The notes beneath the pieces are model-generated. The model saw only the letters and a list, made by a program, of their open reading frames with translations. It did not search any database and was not told the origin of the DNA. A program made the position numbers and the translations under genes. Below, one piece after another: positions 3,851 to 15,529 of a stretch of DNA of 24,000 nucleotides. Position 1 is the stretch's first letter, and the number at the start of each line of letters is the position of its first letter. Location: the NCBI GenBank assembly GCA_001782675.1, contig MFPJ01000020.1, positions 1 through 24,000 on the forward strand. Direction: 5' to 3'. Origin of the DNA: Candidatus Levybacteria bacterium RIFCSPLOWO2_12_FULL_39_17. Lineage in GTDB: Bacteria > Patescibacteriota > Microgenomatia > Levybacterales > GWA1-39-11.

Positions 3851-4141
3851 ATGACCAGAATCAAAGTCAAGAAATTAATTTGGGATGAATATAATCGAGA
3901 ACATATCAAAAGACATGAAGTTAGCGTTAAAGAGGTAGAAGAGATTAGGAAAAATTACTTAGCTCATAAAAAAGGCAAAAAGGGAAGATATTTAATGATT
4001 GGAAGAAGCGGCTCGAGGATTTTATCTGTAGTAATTAACAGAAAAGAAACAGGAATTTATTATCCGGTAACTGCATATGATGCAGATAAGCCCGAAAGGA
4101 GAATCCTTTATGAAAAAGAAAGCAAACAAAAAGAAATTTAA
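3851..4141 (+). CDS. brnT: BrnT-family (DUF497) toxin
   Basis: 96 aa. KKLIWDEYNREHIKRHEVSVKEVEE plus a C-terminal TAYDADKPERRILY match the BrnT/DUF497 pattern (WD..K...KH...ISAR.A...ER..Y). An overlapping antitoxin-like gene follows. Confidence 0.8.
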   Translation: MTRIKVKKLIWDEYNREHIKRHEVSVKEVEEIRKNYLAHKKGKKGRYLMIGRSGSRILSVVINRKETGIYYPVTAYDADKPERRILYEKESKQKEI

Positions 4142-4400
4142 ATTTCCCGATTTCGATAAAATGACCTACGCGCAGGAGGCTAAATGGTGGGATACTCATC
4201 CTTTTTCCGAATATTGGGATGAGTTGGAAGATGTTGATATTGTATTCGAATTACATAAACCAAAAACTGAGACAATTGTAGTTCGTCTTCAGAAAAACCT
4301 AAAGGATAGACTTGAGAAGCTTGCTTCAGCAAAAGGCTTGAATGTTTCCACTCTTGCACGAATGTGGATCGCCGAAAAACTCCGAACAAACAAAGCCTAG
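4110..4400 (+). CDS. brnA: BrnA-like antitoxin (ribbon-helix-helix C-terminus)
   Basis: ORF 4077..4400. ATG 4110 follows AAAGGAGA (4095-4102). The sequence EAKWWDTHPFSEYWDELEDV then IVVRLQKNLKDRLEKLASAKGLNVSTLARMWIAEKL is typical of BrnA/CopG-type antitoxins. It overlaps the brnT 3' end by 32 nt. Confidence 0.75.
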   Translation: MKKKANKKKFKFPDFDKMTYAQEAKWWDTHPFSEYWDELEDVDIVFELHKPKTETIVVRLQKNLKDRLEKLASAKGLNVSTLARMWIAEKLRTNKA

Positions 4401-4705
4401 AAGTTTTTATCTATTAGATTTTTATATTCTTCGCGAGGAATCACAAGCCTCTTATAATTGCAGTATAACAAGTCTTTGTCTAGGAAATAATCAAATTCGT
4501 GAAAATTTGCGGCGTAAATGCCACTTTTTTCACGACTTGTGACCTAAAAGGGAAAAGGAGGCCGTTAAGTGATCCGTCGTAGAACGAATTAAGAAGAACT
4601 TCTGGACTCAAAAGGAGTAAGAATGCCTGCCCAACACTCTTACTCCATCTCAACCCAGAAAAACAACGGGGCCTGCATCTAAAAAAGATTTTAAAGCTAG
4701 TTATT

Positions 4706-4727
4706 AAAGCATAAAAAATGCTTTTTT
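4706..4727 (+). terminator. Intrinsic terminator-like hairpin (AAAGCAT-aaaaa-ATGCTTT followed by a T-run)
   Basis: 7-bp stem at 4706-4712/4718-4724, with the T-run extending to 4727. Confidence 0.45.
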
Positions 4728-4766
4728 AACCGCCTAAATTGCTTTTTTTAGCTTCGTCAATTTTTC

Positions 4767-4795
4767 TTGACAAAGCAATTCGGTTCTGCTAATTT
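4767..4795 (+). promoter_or_regulatory. Sigma70-like promoter (TTGACA-17-TAATTT) in the gene-poor gap
   Basis: TTGACA 4767-4772, a 17-nt spacer, then TAATTT 4790-4795. It points at two hairpins, the second being terminator-like (4847-4911). Confidence 0.35.
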
Positions 4796-4846
4796 CTATT
4801 GTCAAGAGCCTAGTCTTTTCCTGCCTAAAGACTAAAGCTTACTTTA

Positions 4847-4911
4847 AAAGAGCATTGCTTTTCGTACTTAAGGATTTATTTACACAGTAGCGAAAGCGAT
4901 GCTCTTTTTTT
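4847..4911 (+). terminator. Long intrinsic terminator-like hairpin (17 bp including one G-U pair, plus one bulged base) followed by a T-run
   Basis: Arms 4847-4864 and 4891-4907 were paired by hand. The T-run extends to 4911. Confidence 0.5.
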
Positions 4912-5338: not shown

Positions 5339-8300
5339 TTACTTGATACTTCTGATACTTGTGATACCTTTGATACCTCCAATGACGCCGAATAGTCCGA
5401 GAAGAGCAAATCCGGCATACTCCAGGTATTGAGGAAGGAAGACGATTATTATCTTTGATCTTTGATTTTTGATTTTTGATTTTTCGATGAGCCAGCCGTT
5501 TGCCCACCCGTTAACTTCAACATGCTCTTTAATTTCATTCCCAAACCAAAAGGGAAAAGCAGAATTCAAAAAACTTTTAACTTTTAACTTTGAACTTTGA
5601 ACTGAATAGGCTCTCCACCCCGGATCATAGCTCTGGGAAAGGATAAAAGTAGTGGGATGCTCTGAATTTGAAAGGGAAACTTGATAAAAACTTTCCTGAG
5701 GATGATTTACAGATTCAATTTTTGCCCCTTCTGTTTCAGTTTTAACAAAAGGCTTGGCAGAATCAATGCCAATTCCCGTTATAAAGTTAAATGGGATTGG
5801 ATATATTTCCAAGCCCGAAAGCCTATTTGAAACAGTTTGTTTGCCGATTGAGATATTGTCAAAATGAAAAGAATATCCTCTTCCGTTTTCCTCCATTGGA
5901 GGTAACACATAAAATGATACTTCTTCGGCAGATTTTTGGTTTTTTGCCCGAGCTAAGTAAGTATCAATTGGTGCATACCACTGGTCTTCATTTAACACCC
6001 AAAAGTGAAAAGGCCTGCCCGAGAAATTTTTGCTTTTGACAAATATCGCATAAGCCTCATCATGCAAAATAGAGGAGGAGTAAAACGAAGCGCAAATACT
6101 TGAATTGTTTGAGGTAAGCAAAACAAGGCCATTTGAAGTATCGCTTGTATTTTTGCCACTTCTCCAGAAATCACAATCTTTAATGTTAAGCTCTTCTATA
6201 GAAGCTTTATAAGAAATATAATCATCATCTATTTTTGGGACAACTATTGAAAGGCGGTGTTTGCCAAGAGAAACCGGGACCATTACTTCCCCTCTATAAA
6301 GGTTGTCAAAAATTTGAGCCTTGATTTCCTGCGTTTTTGAAATTCCCTGCCCTGAAAGTACCACAAAGTTGTCCTCGAGTCCTGTTAAAAAGCTTGCTCC
6401 TTTCCTTTGCCTTTCATTTTCGGCTTCTTTGTCTATCTTTAAGTTCGATACTCCATTTATATTTAAGCTTACGGGGTATTTTGTACCTTTGGGCAGTATA
6501 AATAGGGGGAAATCAAAAGCTTCCTCCCACATTTTTTGCCTGTCAAGAAATACTCCCGGGGTTTTAATTGCTGCTGAAATGACAGTATTTCCGTCATTAT
6601 CAAGTATGGTTGATATTTCAAAAGCAATACTTTTTTGGGACTTAAAGAAAGAAGGTATTTTTAAGAAAGAGTCTTTTTTGACTTCAATATCTCCTGAAAC
6701 CTCAATAAAATCTTTTTGGTTTTCCAGGGTAAATTCCTTCTCCTTTTCTGTCTTGAGTGAAAAAAGGGAACCGAAGGGGTACATTTGACAACTGACATCT
6801 GACACTTCGACTCCGCTCAGTGCAGGCAATTGACATTTGACAGAAACATAATTCCCGAATGTTGAATAGGCAAGATCACTGCTTTTCCAGAAAGGGGAAT
6901 CAATTTGGGGAAGTTGGCCTTTTGTATAAATAAAAGAATTTACTTTATCCTTTGTTTCAAGTTTATATATTTTTATATTCCCGAATTGGGCAACACCCTG
7001 AATGTTTGGAATTTTTGAAAGTAACTCCTCAGTCTCAGCATAAAATAGTGATTTGGGTGAATTAGGGTAGATTATATTTTTGTCAAGAAGAATAAAAGAA
7101 ATTTGGTATTTGTTAAAAATATCTTGAAGAGCTTTTGGGTTTCTTGAATAGAGGGCGGAGGAGAGTTCATAATAATAGTTTTCGGAAGTTTGGGACCAAA
7201 CATCAAAGGCCCTGTCCAGGATAGGCTGTTTTATTCCATACCACAAGAAGCCCGAACCCCCATATCCCCATCTGTAAAAATTCCACCCCCAAAAGGTAGG
7301 CTGGGGGAGGTTTGCGATTCTTGTATTTTGGTCCTGTTTTTTAAAGAACTCAAAGGTATCAAAGTATTCTTTTGGAATATTAATCCGAGACTTGTCATAA
7401 AAAAGATGGCCTTGGAAGGCGGGGAGAGCAATCAGGAAAATAATAGCAATAATTACAACAGACGGTAGAAAATAGATAATAGAGGATAGTTTTTTGAAAA
7501 TAGATAATAGAGGATAGTTGAGTTTTCGATCTTCTATCTTCAAACTTCTACCACCATCTCCTATTTTCCATATTCTATCGTCAAGGAATTTCAATATTAT
7601 TGAAATTCCAAGAGCGAGCATCACTGAATAGGAGAGGGCTGCAAGTATTGAAAATTTGGTAAAGGGAAAGCGGAATACCTGTTCGAATAATGGGATTTTG
7701 CGAAAAATCTCATCAATAAAAGAAAAAGGAAAAGTGTTTGTTGCAAGCATAGTGAAAGAGAAGAGGAACAAAGCTGCAAAAGCAGCTTTGAATTTCCAAT
7801 TTCCCCCTGCCTCGCCAAGCGAAGCGGGGCGGGCAATTTCCAATTTCCAATTCAAAATTACAGAGAAAAATCCCAAGAGCATTATTCCAAAAAGCATTAA
7901 GCCTGCCAGGACAATATAAGGGTTTGAGAAGTGGTTGCGCCAAGGGGCAAGCATATAATCAAAATCACCGTTAAGATTGGGATCAACATTGTTAAACCAA
8001 AATCCCTTAAGGAGCATTGTGTCAACAAAACCTCCAAACTCCTTATTCTGCAAAACAACATTTTCAGTTGCCATCTGGTTAATCTTGGCATCAAAAACTA
8101 CCTGAGCATTAGTCAGAGTAAAAAATAGGAAAGGAAGTAACCAAAAGGCATTTAAGATAAAAGTTATAAGAAGGACCTTGATACTTGCCGGGTATTGTCG
8201 GGTTCTTATTCCAACATTAAAAAGGACAATTAACAGGGCAGAAATATAGACAATAAAAACTGTCGGTACTTGTCCCTGAGGAATAGCAAGAATATTGACT

Positions 8301-10575: not shown

Positions 10576-10668
10576 AAATTAAAAGTTAAAAATTCAAAAT
10601 TACAATTCAAAGTTCAAAATTTTAAATTTTAAACTGCAACTTTTAACTTTGTACTTTGAACTTTTAAC
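10576..10668. repeat. A/T-rich heptad word module upstream of the GT2-GT4 gene (inverted relative to the radA copy)
   Basis: It contains ttcaaaattacaattcaaa (10593-10611), the exact reverse complement of 1596-1614. Confidence 0.85.
10583..10610 (-). promoter_or_regulatory. Candidate promoter upstream of the GT2-GT4 gene (TTGAAT-16-TAACTT)
   Basis: On the minus strand: TTGAAT (10610-10605) and TAACTT (10588-10583). It shares the 19-mer tttgaattgtaattttgaa with the radA upstream region. Confidence 0.3.
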
Positions 10669-10709
10669 TACTCTTAAGACCACCAGTTTGACTGTTGGGC
10701 TTAAGAGTA
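10669..10709. other. Hairpin with a perfect 10-bp stem (tactcttaag / cttaagagta) and a 21-nt loop
   Basis: Arms at 10669-10678 and 10700-10709 are exact reverse complements. It lies between the glycosyltransferase upstream A/T module and the left inverted-repeat arm. Neither side has a U-tract. Confidence 0.7.
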
Positions 10710-10722
10710 AAGGTATACAGGA
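10709..10722. repeat. Left arm of a 14-bp perfect inverted repeat bracketing the GC-rich block (aaaggtatacagga)
   Basis: It is the reverse complement of 14016-14029 (tcctgtataccttt) and sits at the AT-to-GC composition transition. A 10-bp-stem hairpin (10669-10709) abuts it. Confidence 0.6.
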
Positions 10723-10877
10723 TGGGTAGAAGTTGTTCGCGTGAAGCGAACGGATCGTCGATTGACGAAACTTCCACTCCACACGAGCGTACTTTACTCC
10801 TCTGAGCCAAATCGTTCACGATCATCTTTTGCCTCGCATGCAATACGCAAGGTTTGGATGTTCGATTCACGATCGAT

Positions 10878-11036
10878 TCAGGCTAATAGGCGAATGGAGA
10901 GGTAAATGAGGAAGAAAAGGGCTCCTATGCCACCTCCCAGAACCCACTCTATGAGCGTCCTTATAGTTCCTAGCTCTTTGGCTATATGCCTGAGCAATTC
11001 CTGCTCGGTCATTTCCTCGACCTTCTTCCTGGTCAT
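10878..11036 (-). CDS. Island gene 7: 52-aa C-terminally TM-anchored protein (MTRKKVEEMTEQELLRHIAKELGTIRTLIEWVLGGGIGALFFLIYLSIRLLA)
   Basis: ATG at 11036 is preceded by AGGAGGAG (11043-11050). One C-terminal hydrophobic helix. The longer track ORF 10878..11372 overlaps the upstream gene and has no better start. Confidence 0.55.
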   Translation of the reverse strand: MTRKKVEEMTEQELLRHIAKELGTIRTLIEWVLGGGIGALFFLIYLSIRLLA

Positions 11037-11208
11037 TATTGTCTCCTCCTTTGAGAGACTTGGTTCGAACCTTGACGATATTTTCCCAACGGGATGTGCC
11101 GAATGGCGCGTCCCCGAAGGGAAGGAGTGATCCCGACAAATCGGGATTAGTTCAAGTTTCCGACTCGAACCGTCAACGCTCCCTTGTAATGAGCTGGAAG
11201 GAGGGCTG

Positions 11209-11865
11209 TTACGGCGCCGCCATGACCTCGCACGGATGCGTCTGGCCATCATCCCACTTAGGAATAGCCATTTTGGCCTGCAGCTTCTGTGCGTTTTCCC
11301 GCGTGCCCGGCTCGTTCCAGACGGTTGCGCCTTGGACTCCCATGGGTACGACGAACGCAAAGCACTGGGCATTCTTGCCCGGCTTCGTGTCGAAGTATCC
11401 TTCTGCGAGGGAGCCCTTAGGGTTCAGGAGGATCGAGAACGGTTCTTCCCGGAGATGCCATCCGCCAGGATCAGCAGTCGGTTCCCAACGAGAGGCATCG
11501 CCCCCGAAGAGAGATGCTGCTTCCTGCGCCGTCTTTGGAAAAGCGGCCGTTGCTTGCGTGCCGGTGGTGGTCGTCGTGGTCGTCCCTTGCCTAGGAGCTT
11601 GGGTTGGCGCCGGGGCCCGTGTGGTCGCCGGAGCCGGGCTGGGCGTGGGCTGAGCTACCCGGTTGCAGTCGCTCAAGTTTTGAACCTGGCGGCCGTCCTG
11701 GCAGACATAAGTTATGCCCTTGCCACTGTTGTCCTCGCCAACTTCCCAGATGGGATAACCTAGGGCAAAGCCCGGCCAGACAAAGAGCAGGACAACGACG
11801 AATGTCACTGCTGCAGGGAGCCATTGACTCCACCGGAAACCTTGGGGTTGAGCTTGCTGTGCCAC
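11209..11865 (-). CDS. Island gene 6: 218-aa signal-anchored/secreted protein with a Pro/Thr/Ala-rich linker and a C-terminal domain of unknown family
   Basis: GTG start 11865 lies 6 nt after AAGGAGG (11872-11878). N-terminal TM WLPAAVTFVVVLLFVWPGFALG, linker PTPSPAPATTRAPAPTQAPRQGTTTTTTTGTQ. GC-rich codon usage. Confidence 0.7.
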   Translation of the reverse strand: MAQQAQPQGFRWSQWLPAAVTFVVVLLFVWPGFALGYPIWEVGEDNSGKGITYVCQDGRQVQNLSDCNRVAQPTPSPAPATTRAPAPTQAPRQGTTTTTTTGTQATAAFPKTAQEAASLFGGDASRWEPTADPGGWHLREEPFSILLNPKGSLAEGYFDTKPGKNAQCFAFVVPMGVQGATVWNEPGTRENAQKLQAKMAIPKWDDGQTHPCEVMAAP

Positions 11866-11928
11866 CTTTTGCCTCCTTTAGACTGAACTGAACTCTCATC
11901 CGATGAATCGGAGGGCAGGCTGTCCGAG

Positions 11929-12016
11929 TTTGCCGCCGATTTTACCCCGCACAAAGCAAGGAATTTTTATTACGGCGCGCTATTCAGTTTGCGTGTCAGG
12001 TCCATGTCATGTGCGT
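11929..12016. repeat. 88-bp perfect direct repeat, copy B (between island genes 5 and 6)
   Basis: Base-for-base identical to 13111-13198 (tttgccgccgattttaccccgcacaaagcaaggaatttttattacggcgcgctattcagtttgcgtgtcaggtccatgtcatgtgcgt). The flanking bases differ on both sides. Confidence 0.95.
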
Positions 12017-12029
12017 TTTCCTTCTTTAC

Positions 12030-12581
12030 TCACCTTCTTGTTGTTGTCTCCACCAGGATAGGGGCAGCTTCCAACCGTAGTGGCTGGTCGCTTGAGAAAA
12101 ACAGTACACCTGGCGAAAGCGAGATCATCGCGTTCGTGGCGTAGTCGAAGAAGAAGAATCCGCAGTTAGCGGATGCACCTGCGCCACCGTAGTAGATACC
12201 ATCGAGGGATGGGGCAGTTAGTACCACCTTGCCGTTAGTCGTGCTGTCTACCACCTCGGTCGAGGACAGGAAGTTGCACGTGCTGATCGGCACCGTCTTG
12301 GTCACGTAGTAGCCAACGACGTTGCCATTTTGGCCTAAGATGTAAGTATACCACGGATGGTTGATCAGGTCTTCACGCTCAGTGAACTCCACTAGGGCCT
12401 TGCGGAGCGGGAAGTTCTGTGGTTGGGGCAGAGGCGCAATGGCTTCGGCGTTGGCGAAGACCTCTGTTCGTGCCTTTATGCTCGCCTCACGCTGCTGTGT
12501 GGGGGTCGGCTTGGGGCCGCAGGCAAAGCTCCCAAGAGCCAGCCCAAGTAGAGCAAGTGCTATAATTACCTGCTTCCACAT
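12030..12581 (-). CDS. Island gene 5: 183-aa putative lipoprotein
   Basis: ATG 12581 lies 9 nt after AAGGAGG (12591-12597). Signal peptide MWKQVIIALALLGLALGSFAC with a lipobox-like cysteine. It overlaps the upstream gene by 16 nt (12566-12581). Confidence 0.75.
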   Translation of the reverse strand: MWKQVIIALALLGLALGSFACGPKPTPTQQREASIKARTEVFANAEAIAPLPQPQNFPLRKALVEFTEREDLINHPWYTYILGQNGNVVGYYVTKTVPISTCNFLSSTEVVDSTTNGKVVLTAPSLDGIYYGGAGASANCGFFFFDYATNAMISLSPGVLFFSSDQPLRLEAAPILVETTTRR

Positions 12582-13087
12582 GACGTTTTACCTCCTTCCG
12601 GATAACCATTGTCAGGAATTTGGAATGGTAGGTCGTTGTCTCGGAACTGTCCTATCGTGTAGTCCTTTCTGGCGTCGCCGTTGTACTTGGCGATTGCCTG
12701 TCCATGAGCTGATTGGACACCGGCTATGTTTTGGTTGATGCGGGCACGATCTGCTGTGGTCTCAGCCGTCTTCAGTTGCTCGAATGAGGCGTCCAGACTT
12801 TTCTCGAGGCCTTGGATTCCTGCGCACTGGTTGAAGAATGTCTGGTAGGCGCTGATGCGGAACTCGGCAGATTGGATCTGCTTACGTGCTTCACCGCGGC
12901 CAAATATATCAGCCGTACCAACTCCGAACGCCCACAGACCGATTGAGATGGAACCGGCCAGGACTATCAGCAAGATGAGCAGTCCCCAGCCTTTGAACAT
13001 CCAGCCGATCACATCGCCCATGCCTGGATCTCTATATGGGTTGCTCACTGACTTGTTCCCCCTTCTAGGGTCTCTCCACATTCTCAC
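12566..13087 (-). CDS. Island gene 4: 173-aa type II membrane protein (one N-terminal TM, then a probably helical ectodomain)
   Basis: ORF 12566..13087. The start is ambiguous: GTG 13087, ATG 13081, GTG 13048 (9 nt after AGAAGGGGG, 13058-13066) or ATG 13021. TM helix WGLLILLIVLAGSISIGLWAF. The ectodomain is rich in A/Q/E/K (EARKQIQSAEFRISAYQTFFNQ...EQLKTAETTADRARINQNIAG). Confidence 0.7.
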   Translation of the reverse strand: MRMWRDPRRGNKSVSNPYRDPGMGDVIGWMFKGWGLLILLIVLAGSISIGLWAFGVGTADIFGRGEARKQIQSAEFRISAYQTFFNQCAGIQGLEKSLDASFEQLKTAETTADRARINQNIAGVQSAHGQAIAKYNGDARKDYTIGQFRDNDLPFQIPDNGYPEGGKTSCGSR

Positions 13088-13110
13088 GTGAAGGCTAATG
13101 CCTGCCGATA

Positions 13111-13198
13111 TTTGCCGCCGATTTTACCCCGCACAAAGCAAGGAATTTTTATTACGGCGCGCTATTCAGTTTGCGTGTCAGGTCCATGTCATGTGCGT
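13111..13198. repeat. 88-bp perfect direct repeat, copy A (between island genes 3 and 4)
   Basis: Identical to 11929-12016. Spacing is 1182 bp. In gene (minus) orientation both copies begin with the mini-ORF ATG ACA TGG ACC TGA. Confidence 0.95.
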
Positions 13199-13205
13199 CC
13201 TCCTC

Positions 13206-13385
13206 CTAATGTATGTCAGTTCGTCTTGTGCCTGGCTTAGGGTGATGGCGACCTCGCTTCTTAGATCTTGGAAAATAGCCCGGACGCCACTCGCGTTTTT
13301 CTTGACGACCGTCTTTTCCTGGTTTTATCCTGGGATCCCTATTATAACGAATTCGACGTGACTTATTTCTTTTGTTAGTAGCCAT
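13206..13385 (-). CDS. Island gene 3: 59-aa extremely basic protein (MATNKRNKSRRIRYNRDPRIKPGKDGRQEKREWRPGYFPRSKKRGRHHPKPGTRRTDIH)
   Basis: Hand-translated; below the ORF-track length cutoff. ATG 13385 lies 4 nt after AAGGAGG (13390-13396). Stop TAG at 13208-13206. Confidence 0.5.
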   Translation of the reverse strand: MATNKRNKSRRIRYNRDPRIKPGKDGRQEKREWRPGYFPRSKKRGRHHPKPGTRRTDIH

Positions 13386-13426
13386 TCTGCCTCCTTGCGG
13401 GTTCTCCGATTATTCGGTTGTCCCAG

Positions 13427-13600
13427 TTACGTCCCAAGAAAGATAGCCGTGATCGTACCTCCTATCATCATCAACAAGATGATGGCCTGTAACCATCGCT
13501 CATTGCTTCCTATGGTAGTCACCATTCCCCTCCTTCGCCTAGGCTTGAACTGTCTCCTGGGTACTGCCATGGTTCGGGTCCGCCTGAATGACCTTTTCAT
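13427..13600 (-). CDS. Island gene 2: 57-aa protein with an Arg-rich N-terminus and one C-terminal TM helix
   Basis: Track ORF 13427..13612. ATG 13600 follows GGAGG (13606-13610) and overlaps the upstream stop (ATGA, 13597-13600), which suggests translational coupling. Sequence: MKRSFRRTRTMAVPRRQFKPRRRRGMVTTIGSNERWLQAIILLMMIGGTITAIFLGT. Confidence 0.55.
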   Translation of the reverse strand: MKRSFRRTRTMAVPRRQFKPRRRRGMVTTIGSNERWLQAIILLMMIGGTITAIFLGT

Positions 13601-13752
13601 CCTTTCCTCCATATATTAAAACTCAGATTCCCAAAGACCGCGAATCCTATTCCTACCAGAAGCGTGGTGTCTCTCCCTCCACTATAAGATATAACTATCC
13701 CCAAACCAAAGAGAAAAATACCGAGGTAGCTCAAGAGTTGCCACATATACAT
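13597..13752 (-). CDS. Island gene 1: 51-aa protein with two predicted TM helices (MYMWQLLSYLGIFLFGLGIVISYSGGRDTTLLVGIGFAVFGNLSFNIWRKG)
   Basis: Hand-translated; below the ORF-track cutoff. ATG 13752 follows AGGAGGAG (13756-13763). The stop TGA overlaps the next gene's ATG. Confidence 0.55.
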   Translation of the reverse strand: MYMWQLLSYLGIFLFGLGIVISYSGGRDTTLLVGIGFAVFGNLSFNIWRKG

Positions 13753-13875
13753 TTTCTCCTCCTATATATTTGAATATCTCTCGACAAGTGTCGGAGATCG
13801 CGCACCGTGCGCAGTTTCATCCCACGGTACGCGGTACCCGACACCTGAAGTAGAACCGCTTTTAGAGCGGTTAAT

Positions 13876-13913
13876 CCCACATTAACTTCCACGATCGTGA
13901 AGGTTTGTGTGGG
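13876..13913. repeat. 38-nt hairpin element, copy 1 (cccacattaacttccacgatcgtgaaggtttgtgtggg)
   Basis: Outer stem CCCACA/TGTGGG and palindromic core CCACGATCGTG. It matches copy 3 at 30 of 38 positions, with a compensatory C-G to T-A change in the outer stem. It lies ~125 nt upstream of island gene 1. Confidence 0.8.
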
Positions 13914-14015
13914 TTTTGCCTATTTAATTAAAAATTTATCCGTTTTTCGTCCTTTTCAGCCAGAGGCTGATCCGCCTTTGGCGGAAAAAAGCAGGACTAC
14001 GCAAACGAATAATTT

Positions 14016-14029
14016 TCCTGTATACCTTT
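14016..14029. repeat. Right arm of the 14-bp perfect inverted repeat (tcctgtataccttt)
   Basis: It is the reverse complement of 10709-10722 and sits at the GC-to-AT transition on the right side of the block. Confidence 0.6.
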
Positions 14030-14199
14030 TGTTAAAGAACAACCTAGCAACTAGATACTAGATAATAGCTACTAGTCATGCTTTTAGACTTGAGCTAGCC
14101 CTATGTCTATCGCTAGGAAAATTTCCTTCCTTAAGGTTATACATGTCATCGCGAAACAAAGATTCTTTGCTTCGCTCAGAATGACAATCACCTTTTAAG

Positions 14200-14305: not shown

Positions 14306-14324
14306 AATCCCGCAAAGCGGGATT
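14306..14324. other. 19-nt palindrome AATCCCGCAAAGCGGGATT overlapping the surface-protein stop codon, followed by a second hairpin at 14289-14304
   Basis: Dyad of two perfectly complementary 8-nt arms around AAA. The adjacent hairpin CTCCT-gcctca-AGGAG is at 14289-14304. Confidence 0.6.
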
Positions 14325-15009
14325 AGCTTGCTTTTCTTCTAAGATAGATTCCTGCAAGTCCCGTAGGAATAAGCGCGACAAGACCTAAAAGTTCAGGACC
14401 CGTAGATGGAATTTGACTAACGGTTGGTTTCTGAAAAATCTGAGGAGTAGGAACCGCGACTATTCCTCTTTCAATACAAACCTGAGCATTATCTTCGGCT
14501 GTCGAACCATCCGGAGCCGTGGCTCTTACATTATTAACAGCACAAGCTATTGCCTGGTTTTGGGGCAAGCCTGCCGCGTCTGCCGCTTTGGCAGTTATAA
14601 CAAATTCCATTTTTTGCCCACGGTTTATCTTGCCGACCACAAAGCTTATTTGTTTGGCTCCGACACTGGCATTGCCCACTCCGGCAACAAAAGAAAGCTG
14701 ATCCGGAAAGGTATCTACAACATTAAGGTTTGTAATATCAGTAGTTCCCGTATTTTCGATCACAATTTTGAAATTTACATTCTGTCCGGGAGAAAGCCTT
14801 AGGTCATTAAGAGTCATATTTTCAAAAAACTCTCCGCCTTTTGTTAGTCTTTGTACCAGTTTATTTATGGTGAATTTAACTTGTTGAGGTGGACAAACTT
14901 CCCCGCCGCCGTAAATTATTTGACACTGACTTTGCCCTGCCGCACTGACAATCGGCGCGGCAACCAAAGGCGCGATTAAAAGACCAAAGAGAACAAATAA
15001 TTTTCTCAT
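14323..15009 (-). CDS. Cell-surface protein with a DUF11-like repeat domain and a C-terminal sortase-type sorting signal
   Basis: Track ORF 14323..15036. ATG 15009 gives the signal peptide MRKLFVLFGLLIAPLVAAPIVSA. The DUF11-like core is LSPGQNVNFKIVIENTGTTDITNLNVVDTFPDQLSFV. The C-terminus IPSTGPE + LLGLVALIPTGLAGIYL + RRKAS has the layout LPXTG-like motif, TM helix, basic tail. Confidence 0.85.
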   Translation of the reverse strand: MRKLFVLFGLLIAPLVAAPIVSAAGQSQCQIIYGGGEVCPPQQVKFTINKLVQRLTKGGEFFENMTLNDLRLSPGQNVNFKIVIENTGTTDITNLNVVDTFPDQLSFVAGVGNASVGAKQISFVVGKINRGQKMEFVITAKAADAAGLPQNQAIACAVNNVRATAPDGSTAEDNAQVCIERGIVAVPTPQIFQKPTVSQIPSTGPELLGLVALIPTGLAGIYLRRKAS

Positions 15010-15084
15010 AAATATATTTTTTTTAATTATTACCATTATTTTCTATCTTTTTAATTAAAGAAAAGTAAGATAATGGTAATATAA

Positions 15085-15470: not shown

Positions 15471-15529
15471 TAGTTTTAATTTAGACTTTGAATTTTTAAC
15501 TTTGAATTTTTAACTTTTAACTTTCTATC
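15471..15529. repeat. A/T-rich heptad word module immediately upstream of rho
   Basis: Sequence tagttttaatttagactttgaatttttaactttgaatttttaacttttaactttctatc, followed directly by ATG 15530. Confidence 0.85.

Follow-up and report, generated by a model that had tools for sequence, protein, structure and literature searches.

A probable composite island of envelope genes, bounded by inverted repeats and holding a gene pair shared with phages, in a Microgenomates bacterium

We analysed a window of 24,000 nt (positions 1 to 24,000 of contig MFPJ01000020.1, assembly GCA_001782675.1, Candidatus Levybacteria bacterium RIFCSPLOWO2_12_FULL_39_17) in which a G+C-rich block of about 3.3 kb lies between a glycosyltransferase (GT) operon and the gene of a CLIPPER-domain surface protein. 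The block is bracketed by a perfect 14-nt inverted repeat (10709–10722 and 14016–14029) and holds seven open reading frames (ORFs) on the minus strand behind a structured leader RNA (Table 1). Two of the genes, for a membrane-anchored protein of 173 aa and a predicted lipoprotein of 183 aa, form a pair that is also found in phages, a third encodes a signal-anchored protein of 218 aa that recurs at the same locus in related genomes, and the remaining four are mini-ORFs of 51, 57, 59 and 52 aa. The organism belongs to the candidate phyla radiation (CPR), bacteria with tiny genomes and few recognisable mobile elements, whose phages and defences are little known. A first-pass annotation, made from the sequence alone, had listed the same seven ORFs, all of which are present in the ORF listing, and had placed the ends of the block within 40 and 17 nt of the inverted repeats.

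Table 1. Features of the repeat-bounded block and its margins, in window coordinates
Feature	Position	Strand	Remarks
Hairpin, 19-bp arms	10669–10709	.	Abuts the outer side of the downstream repeat
Downstream terminal inverted repeat	10709–10722	-	Coding strand reads TCCTGTATACCTTT; coincides with the sharp change in composition; 134 nt upstream of the GT gene
52-aa ORF	10878–11036	-	C-terminal hydrophobic helix; AGGAGGAG upstream
218-aa signal-anchored protein, cassette core gene	11209–11865	-	Pro/Thr linker, then conserved C-terminal domain of ~110 aa; GC3 0.65
Direct repeat copy B, 97 nt	11929–12025	-	Starts just past the lipoprotein stop, ends 64 nt before the 218-aa gene
183-aa predicted lipoprotein, second gene of pair	12030–12581	-	Overlaps the 173-aa gene by 16 nt
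173-aa protein, first gene of pair	12566–13087	-	N-terminal membrane anchor, then extracytoplasmic three-helix bundle
Direct repeat copy A, 97 nt	13111–13207	-	Starts at the 59-aa stop, ends 24 nt before the 173-aa ORF
59-aa Arg/Lys-rich ORF, coding status uncertain	13206–13385	-	AAGGAGG upstream; GC3 0.33
57-aa putative ORF	13427–13600	-	Arg-rich N-terminus, C-terminal hydrophobic helix; GGAGG 13606–13610
51-aa ORF, apparently a two-helix membrane peptide	13597–13752	-	AGGAGGAG 5 nt upstream; GC3 0.44
Untranslated, strongly structured leader	13753–14015	-	No Shine-Dalgarno-bearing ORF inside
Conserved leader RNA motif	13782–13856	-	Outer stem and inner hairpin with GAAAC-containing loop
Upstream terminal inverted repeat	14016–14029	-	Coding strand reads AAAGGTATACAGGA; 12-nt core AAGGTATACAGG

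The block differs from its surroundings in composition and in translation signals. The G+C counts made by hand on three 60-nt lines (17, 36 and 45) were exact on recounting, and the abrupt change they had pointed to was borne out, with a G+C content of 0.49–0.62 in 500-nt windows between about 10,750 and 13,500 versus 0.31–0.39 in the adjacent flanks. The repeat-bounded block as a whole (10709–14029) has a G+C content of 0.526 and the remainder of the window 0.404, and tetranucleotide distance from the rest of the window is highest over the block (0.44–0.46, against a background of 0.15–0.22). The switch is sharp at the GT-proximal end (10709), where G+C rises from 0.17–0.37 to 0.48, and gradual at the surface-protein end; since the stretch from 13,400 to 14,029 reaches only about 0.37–0.46, the G+C-rich core (approximately 10.7–13.5 kb) is shorter than the block. 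G+C content at third codon positions (GC3) is 0.59–0.66 in the 52-, 218-, 183-, 173- and 61-aa ORFs versus 0.31–0.48 in host genes, the 51- and 59-aa ORFs being host-like in this respect (0.44 and 0.33). A Shine-Dalgarno (SD) motif, AGGAGG or GGAGG, stands 5–10 nt upstream of the start in six of the seven ORFs and in front of none of 12 flanking genes. The two gene junctions described as overlapping were both confirmed, the first by direct reading of the sequence: the ATG of the 57-aa ORF at 13600 overlaps the stop of the 51-aa ORF in an ATGA, with GGAGG 5 nt upstream, and the 173- and 183-aa genes share positions 12566–12581.

No integrase, transposase or reverse transcriptase gene was found in the block by Pfam, NCBIfam and PHROG scans, in agreement with the first-pass annotation, and the same scans gave no phage structural genes. 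Comparison of the block DNA with phage and plasmid collections (blastn) gave no match, the window contains no tRNA or tmRNA gene according to a tRNA/tmRNA search, and no part of it matches Rfam at the gathering threshold. Consensus scans for promoters and terminators were uninformative. A classical genomic island or prophage, considered for its atypical composition, was rejected on these grounds (tRNA/tmRNA, integrase, structural genes, phage or plasmid DNA).

Exact-sequence lookup of the 183-aa protein and of the 237-aa CLIPPER-domain protein retrieved contigs of the same population from MEGAHIT assemblies in ENA, from four JGI metagenomes and from two NCBI metagenome-assembled genomes (MAGs; GCA_000996545.1 and GCA_001782605.1). 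Over 9 kb outside the block these contigs differ from the window by 0–3 bases; they are essentially clonal and thus uninformative on selection. MAG depositions of this Microgenomates bacterium are labelled either Woesebacteria or Levybacteria.

In the sequences covered, the inverted repeats keep to one locus. By our own estimate, chance alone would give 0.07 repeat pairs of this kind in 6 kb. The window has no further copy of the exact 12-nt core, and all its occurrences in the roughly 600 kb of fetched loci (numbered L) are at cassette ends, always at the same locus: at 7664 and 8758 in L050/L051, at 1531 and 2827 in L053/L054, and also in L037. At the position equivalent to the upstream repeat L050/L051 has the same core, and L053 has two mismatches to it. 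CCTGTATACCTT is invariant at the downstream repeat in the window, L037/L051 and L053, and the sequence around it is diverged. Composition, including that of the non-coding parts, switches at the repeats. The hairpin that abuts the downstream repeat could be a terminator or could belong to the intergenic sequence of the host, and L051 and L053 also have a hairpin at the equivalent position, of different sequence. Between the cassette and the glycosyltransferase start codon lies an AT-rich imperfect palindrome (10579–10667; 44-nt arms, 77% complementary), and AT-rich repeats related to it are found near 15,480.

The leader folds more stably than dinucleotide shuffles, with minimum free energy z-scores of -3.8 (13930–14040) and -3.6 (13800–13930). 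Its conserved motif aligns with L051 7722–7796 and L053 1562–1634, RNAalifold gives 25 pairs, eight of them with compensatory changes, and a covariance model of the motif (R1) matches only in the three repeat-bearing cassettes. The motif has a sub-threshold match to the Rfam family cold-seep-1 (RF03089; 22.8 bits against a gathering score of 125.8, E 0.38) in which two large model segments are mostly missing (12 of 22 and 4 of 45 positions present) and a junction sequence, ACUUCnGGUGnCGGG, is the sole part in common; on this comparison it may be a distant relative of cold-seep-1 or resemble it by chance.

The 218-aa protein belongs to a small family that is defined by its C-terminal domain and restricted to CPR bacteria (56 clusters at 50% identity); it was not found in 50,697 GenBank phage records. 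Residues W127-E128, G135-W136-H137, E140 and D159-T-K-P-G163 are invariant in 15 close homologues, and a few family members carry LysM domains. The gene order CLIPPER, 218 family, GT is kept in L039/L040, L050/L051 and L053/L054; in L038 the 218-family gene follows the CLIPPER gene at the contig end, and in L037 only the 218-family gene and the GT gene are visible. In the window the CLIPPER-domain protein (237 aa, 14323–15036, minus strand) ends in IPSTGPE, a hydrophobic helix and RRK, that is, in a sortase-type sorting signal; in the five species whose upstream gene can be seen, the 218-family gene comes after this gene. The relatives are deeply diverged (protein identity 47–64% for GT and 34–51% for CLIPPER), with synonymous sites saturated.

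In the window, L051 and L053 the 12-nt inverted repeat brackets the 218-family gene, which starts behind its own leader with the structured motif and has a GC3 of 0.56–0.65 between flanking genes of 0.24–0.45; the non-coding parts are G+C-elevated as well. In L039 and L038, by contrast, repeat and leader motif are absent, the non-coding parts are not elevated, the flanking genes are host-typical in GC3, and the 218-family gene, itself host-like (GC3 0.21–0.32), starts at the CLIPPER stop or 67 nt past it, overlapping that stop in L039. L055, a partial contig with no repeat seen, has a 218-family gene with a GC3 of 0.68. The repeat-bounded unit of L051 and L053 measures 1.1–1.3 kb and holds only the 218-family gene and the leader RNA. 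Lacking in the relatives is the stretch of about 1.8 kb between the leader motif (13782–13856) and the 218-aa gene with its three mini-ORFs and the phage pair, and the 52-aa ORF is missing from the cassettes of L051 and L053. Presence of the same block at the same locus in all relatives had been named as an argument against recent acquisition; we find the cassette core at that locus in some relatives, but others carry the repeat-less orthologue of host-like composition. Pairwise identities are mildly incongruent, the cassette and CLIPPER placing the window nearest L051 and GT placing it nearest L053, but the signal is too weak to decide between repeated entry of the slot and a G+C content that is maintained.

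The gene pair has a far wider distribution. None of the seven products had been assigned to a known family, which holds for curated families, but three of the seven have many homologues, among them 251 for the 183-aa protein (50–68% identity) and 79 for the 173-aa protein. Wherever a locus contains both genes they are neighbours, and they overlap by 13–25 nt in every homologous pair looked at. The start of the 173-aa gene is ambiguous, as noted before, with gene callers giving 160–173 aa. The AlphaFold2 model of the 173-aa protein (pLDDT 87) has helices at 23–71, 74–107 and 111–139, and that of the lipoprotein (pLDDT 84) has N-terminal helices followed by a small beta domain. Indicators of an extracytoplasmic location are the anchor helix at the N-terminus of the former, a lipobox-type Cys (about position 22, with A/S/G at -1) in 82 of 83 lipoprotein sequences, and further conserved cysteines in both proteins (C102 and C140 in the lipoprotein; Cys88 and Cys170 in the anchor protein, kept in 68 of 71 sequences). 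The earlier description of the products as envelope proteins stands as far as sequence features go: for the products that have homologues an orientation towards the outside of the membrane is predicted, and the products of the pair probably act at its outer face, as a complex. Foldseek searches of PDB returned only generic helical bundles for the 173-aa model (Skp, syntaxin Habc; E > 0.1) and nothing for the lipoprotein model, BFVD returned only an unnamed homologue, and PDB profile searches with the three families gave only a non-significant match to a bulb-type lectin (E 0.46). A LemA-like fold was considered for the 173-aa protein and is unsupported by Pfam and Foldseek.

On phage contigs the pair lies near genes for SSB, DnaJ, RNR, a PD-(D/E)XK nuclease, QueC and an SNF2 helicase, with an exonuclease, ThyX, a helicase and a possible sliding-clamp protein (weak Pfam match) as further neighbours. 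It is present in cultured jumbo phages (Xanthomonas XaC1, Salicola SCTP-2, Klebsiella Eowyn and Serratia KpHz_2/KpGz_1). The anchor protein was found by tblastn in Streptomyces and Arthrobacter phages; actinophage matches to the lipoprotein are weak (Auxilium gp70, the adjacent gene, and Zuko gp47, non-adjacent). A free circular element of about 3 kb was considered and rejected, the short contigs with the pair being fragments of phage genomes (SSB, DnaJ and DUF5131 neighbours). In two phage contigs (L022 15260–16513 and L057 6089–6820) the pair is within a few kb of 7-deazaguanine (queuosine-type) synthesis genes (QueC, PTPS/QueD, radical-SAM), an association that could be accidental or could represent a module that recurs.

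When 185,579 species-representative genomes were scanned with a two-peptide pattern, the lipoprotein was found in five, four of which are named CPR bacteria; Wildermuthbacteria and the present organism are two further CPR lineages with the pair, which occurs in at least six CPR lineages overall. The fifth genome of the scan (L049, OZ246414.1; pair at 5492–6469) is a 915-kb MAG labelled Gammaproteobacteria, the only carrier not labelled as CPR. It has a CPR-sized chromosome in which the pair forms a G+C island (0.57 versus 0.44) and the lipoprotein gene is split over two frames; the MAG may be mislabelled taxonomically. In phages the G+C content of the pair is that of the phage itself (0.40–0.64). 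In five CPR genomes it forms an islet of about 1.1 kb that lies 0.08–0.18 above background between housekeeping genes, and in Wildermuthbacteria G+C rises only slightly. The Woykebacteria copy is 76% identical to that of the viral contig L057, 73% to that of Nealsonbacteria and 47% to that of the window. Such interleaving of CPR and phage sequences, together with the distribution of the pair, indicates that it has been exchanged repeatedly between phages and CPR genomes.

Within the block the pair is bracketed by two direct repeats of 97 nt that are 97% identical; copy A has no significant fold, and one assembly (L007) breaks at copy B. The absence of the pair from the cassettes of relatives and the presence of these flanking repeats point to a nested insertion or a duplication footprint. 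For the four mini-ORFs, candidate genes with SD motifs, no relatives turned up among the fetched loci, in IMG/VR or within the 90% identity clusters to which they belong: the 51-aa ORF (49 contigs), the 52-aa ORF (56 contigs) and the 59-aa ORF are singleton clusters, and the protein collection does not contain the 57-aa ORF as called. A G+C-rich stretch upstream of the 218-family gene in L055 (1593–2661) holds other small membrane-protein ORFs (64, 98 and 118 aa), which suggests that small hydrophobic ORFs tend to accumulate in the slot preceding the core gene.

From the observed anatomy, synteny and composition of the block, the distribution of the pair over phages and CPR bacteria and its conserved gene overlap, we consider it probable that the block is a composite, horizontally derived island of envelope genes in three layers. 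The first would be a cassette that has no transposase and consists of the 12–14-nt terminal inverted repeats, its own structured leader RNA and the SD-led 218-family gene. Its site would be fixed in this Microgenomates clade between the sortase-signal CLIPPER gene and the glycosyltransferase operon, where other relatives hold the repeat-less orthologue of host composition, and its repeats are probably ends recognised by a recombinase or transposase encoded elsewhere. In the second layer the cassette would have grown from about 1.1 to 3.3 kb by taking up the phage-borne two-gene module, that is, the N-anchored helical-bundle protein and the translationally coupled lipoprotein within the 97-nt duplication, between leader and core gene. 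The third layer would comprise the three mini-ORFs upstream of the pair and the one downstream of the core gene.

A bolder version, which we put forward as rather unlikely, is that the outer unit represents an undescribed, site-specific, transposase-less kind of CPR cassette that occupies, or reoccupies, one slot beside surface-protein genes, serves there as a landing pad for foreign envelope genes including the phage-exchanged module, and has its composition renewed or kept rather than ameliorating. The module would then have been exchanged with phages of higher-GC bacteria, possibly with phages of the CPR cells' own hosts.

Several results weigh against the composite island and its proposed mobility. 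No recombinase, transposase or integrase was found in the 24-kb window or in the flanks of the related loci. A target-site duplication is not evident, no direct repeat abutting the inverted repeats in the window, L051 or L053; the palindromic GTATAC within the repeat permits an alternative reading as a 6-bp duplication, and an unoccupied palindromic site, AGGTATACCT, was not found in the repeat-less relatives. The cassette was seen neither in a second genomic copy nor at an alternative site nor inverted, so that it is at most a putative mobile unit. In the three species the cassette genes are synonymously saturated (proportion of synonymous differences, pS, 0.70–0.85) and yet GC3-rich, whereas a single ancient insertion should have ameliorated by then; either the same slot was entered repeatedly from a G+C-rich pool or the segment is kept G+C-rich. 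Homology of the 97-nt repeat to the leaders of the relatives, also considered, received no support from MAFFT. Searches of Pfam, PHROGs, NCBIfam and PADLOC with all seven proteins and with whole family alignments gave no match. One population (GCA_000996545.1, L009) has a frameshifted lipoprotein gene: a 23-nt insertion in the TTC-repeat region at the equivalent of about 12163, present in this one MAG, reduces it to 159 aa, which reflects either an error of sequencing or assembly or incipient decay of the gene.

By analogy, the closest known kind for the outer unit would be the mobile insertion cassette (MIC). MIC231 of Bacillus cereus and the TnXax1-type MICs of Xanthomonas carry passenger genes between repeats of insertion sequence (IS) type, have no transposase and are mobilised in trans (PMC4337579). 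As in these elements (PMC4337579), short terminal inverted repeats bracket one or few passenger genes in the cassette, an internal transposase is lacking, the composition is foreign and the cargo consists of exported or surface proteins. Unlike MICs, it comes with no detected target-site duplication or cognate IS, lies at one identical locus in several deeply diverged species, with no second copy or alternative site seen among the fetched loci, and has a conserved structured leader RNA and a passenger gene whose repeat-less orthologue occupies the same locus in other relatives. The locus also resembles xenologous in-situ displacement and classical genomic islands, in that a gene of foreign composition sits in the slot of the relatives' homologue of native composition and is atypical in G+C, GC3 and translation signals. 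It differs from them in the defined inverted-repeat ends of the block, its own leader and the lack of tRNA and integrase genes, and in that the same foreign-looking state is found in several lineages saturated at synonymous sites.

Among the alternatives to a composite island, a native, vertically inherited locus, in which selection on RNA or DNA structure or on expression level keeps the G+C-richness and the repeats and only the pair has been inserted, appears unlikely. It would account for the shared locus and orientation in four species, for a synonymous divergence that has reached saturation in the cassette gene as it has in the flanking rho, GT and CLIPPER genes, and for the constraint implied by a leader RNA and 12-nt repeats that stay conserved within diverged sequence. 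The shift in composition, however, includes the non-coding parts and ends at the repeats, the repeat-less orthologues have host-like GC3, the pairwise identities are incongruent in the sense given above (cassette and CLIPPER to L051, GT to L053), and we know of no mechanism that would hold a 1-kb segment 25–30 points above genomic GC3.

That the whole 3.3-kb block arrived in one recent transfer as a single cassette of seven genes is less likely still, even if its genes are co-oriented, SD-led, G+C-rich and bounded by one pair of inverted repeats. Two or three other, deeply diverged species share the repeats, the leader RNA and the 218-family gene with the window but lack the remaining six ORFs, the pair has a separate distribution and its own 97-nt repeats, and the composition is uneven, with the 51- and 59-aa ORFs and the leader near host G+C. 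The horizontally acquired cassette proposed in the first-pass annotation was right in spirit, but the block is better described as a composite than as one recent unit.

The architecture of the pair, a type-II anchored helical protein encoded in overlap with a lipoprotein, recalls overlapped spanins such as P2 LysB/LysC and the lambda Rz/Rz1 class. With the small hydrophobic ORFs and the LysM domains of a few 218-family members, this would fit a remnant phage lysis cassette in which the mini-peptides are holin and antiholin, the 173- and 183-aa proteins i-spanin and o-spanin, and the 218-aa protein a signal-anchored endolysin. We regard this as very improbable, since the phage-borne pair lies in DNA-metabolism or early regions, outside lysis cassettes and not beside holins or endolysins, and the lipoprotein is three times the usual o-spanin size, with a folded beta domain. 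CPR bacteria and the hosts of actinophages are monoderms without a classical outer membrane, and the pair occurs in the former and at least its anchor protein in phages of the latter. The 218 family, for its part, was missing from the phage records named above, has no match to a hydrolase family or a solved structure, and in relatives is a chromosomal gene coupled to the surface-protein gene.

An invertible segment, with the repeats as crossover sites of a site-specific invertase for surface-protein phase variation, is suggested by two identical inverted sites around surface-protein genes between two surface-biogenesis operons, but it is highly improbable: the segment has one orientation in every one of at least 24 contigs of the population and in each of the four species, its vicinity holds no invertase gene, and the sites measure just 12–14 nt. 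A metagenomic chimera, that is, a G+C-rich piece of another organism mis-joined into an AT-rich CPR contig, had been offered as the alternative to acquisition and would explain the abrupt change in composition and SD usage and the break of some assemblies within the block at the 97-nt repeats (L007, L013), but it is refuted almost beyond doubt by the recurrence of the block, its two junctions identical, on at least 24 contigs that different projects built with different assemblers, and by homologous repeat-bounded G+C-rich cassettes at the same locus in other species from unrelated samples. A sharp switch in G+C and SD usage in a MAG need not, then, mean a binning or assembly error.

As to function, the early or DNA-metabolism context of the pair in phages and the fact that reduced CPR genomes keep it as a module on its own fit best with a role in exclusion or protection. 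We tentatively propose, by analogy, that the pair could act in phage exclusion or protection at the level of the envelope, either as superinfection exclusion or by masking of receptors; it would then probably be retained in CPR genomes as envelope protection against phage. Llp of T5 and Imm and Sp of T4 are phage exclusion proteins, a kind of protein that as a rule evolves fast and is tied to particular hosts. The Ltp lipoprotein of Streptococcus phage TP-J34 is an envelope protein of superinfection exclusion (PMC3952083). Like phage morons and exclusion proteins, the pair is phage-borne and probably early-expressed, consists of a membrane-anchored protein and a lipoprotein and occurs as isolated chromosomal modules outside any prophage. 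It has no similarity in sequence or fold to Ltp, Llp, Imm or Sp (Pfam, PHROG, PADLOC, PDB), is an obligately paired, overlapping two-gene unit, and is far more conserved over a far wider range of hosts (Gammaproteobacteria phages, actinophages, CPR) than known exclusion proteins. The resemblance is one of lifestyle only, and the 45–60% identity of the pair across very different hosts speaks against exclusion. The 218-family protein is probably a partner of the adjacent sortase-signal surface protein.

The pair is a widespread, wholly unannotated two-protein envelope module that moves between phages and at least six CPR lineages, and its homologues in cultured jumbo phages and actinophages make its function experimentally testable. 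A repeat-bounded cassette at a fixed site by surface-protein and glycosylation genes could mark an undescribed recombination system, and a GC3 of 25–30 points above that of the genome in synonymously saturated lineages bears on how foreign DNA is recognised and dated in MAGs.

Elsewhere in the window, two non-coding stretches (4612–4661 and 4742–4911) are 81–90% identical to L037 and L039, and the neighbouring genes 65–71%. The region 4612–4911 includes a promoter-like site (TTGACA...TAATTT) and a hairpin followed by a T-run, and is a candidate conserved small RNA that has no Rfam family. A BrnT-type toxin and a CopG-type antitoxin form a gene pair at 3851–4400 (plus strand), between the radA-linked genes and a large membrane-protein gene (Pfam matches, identical contigs).

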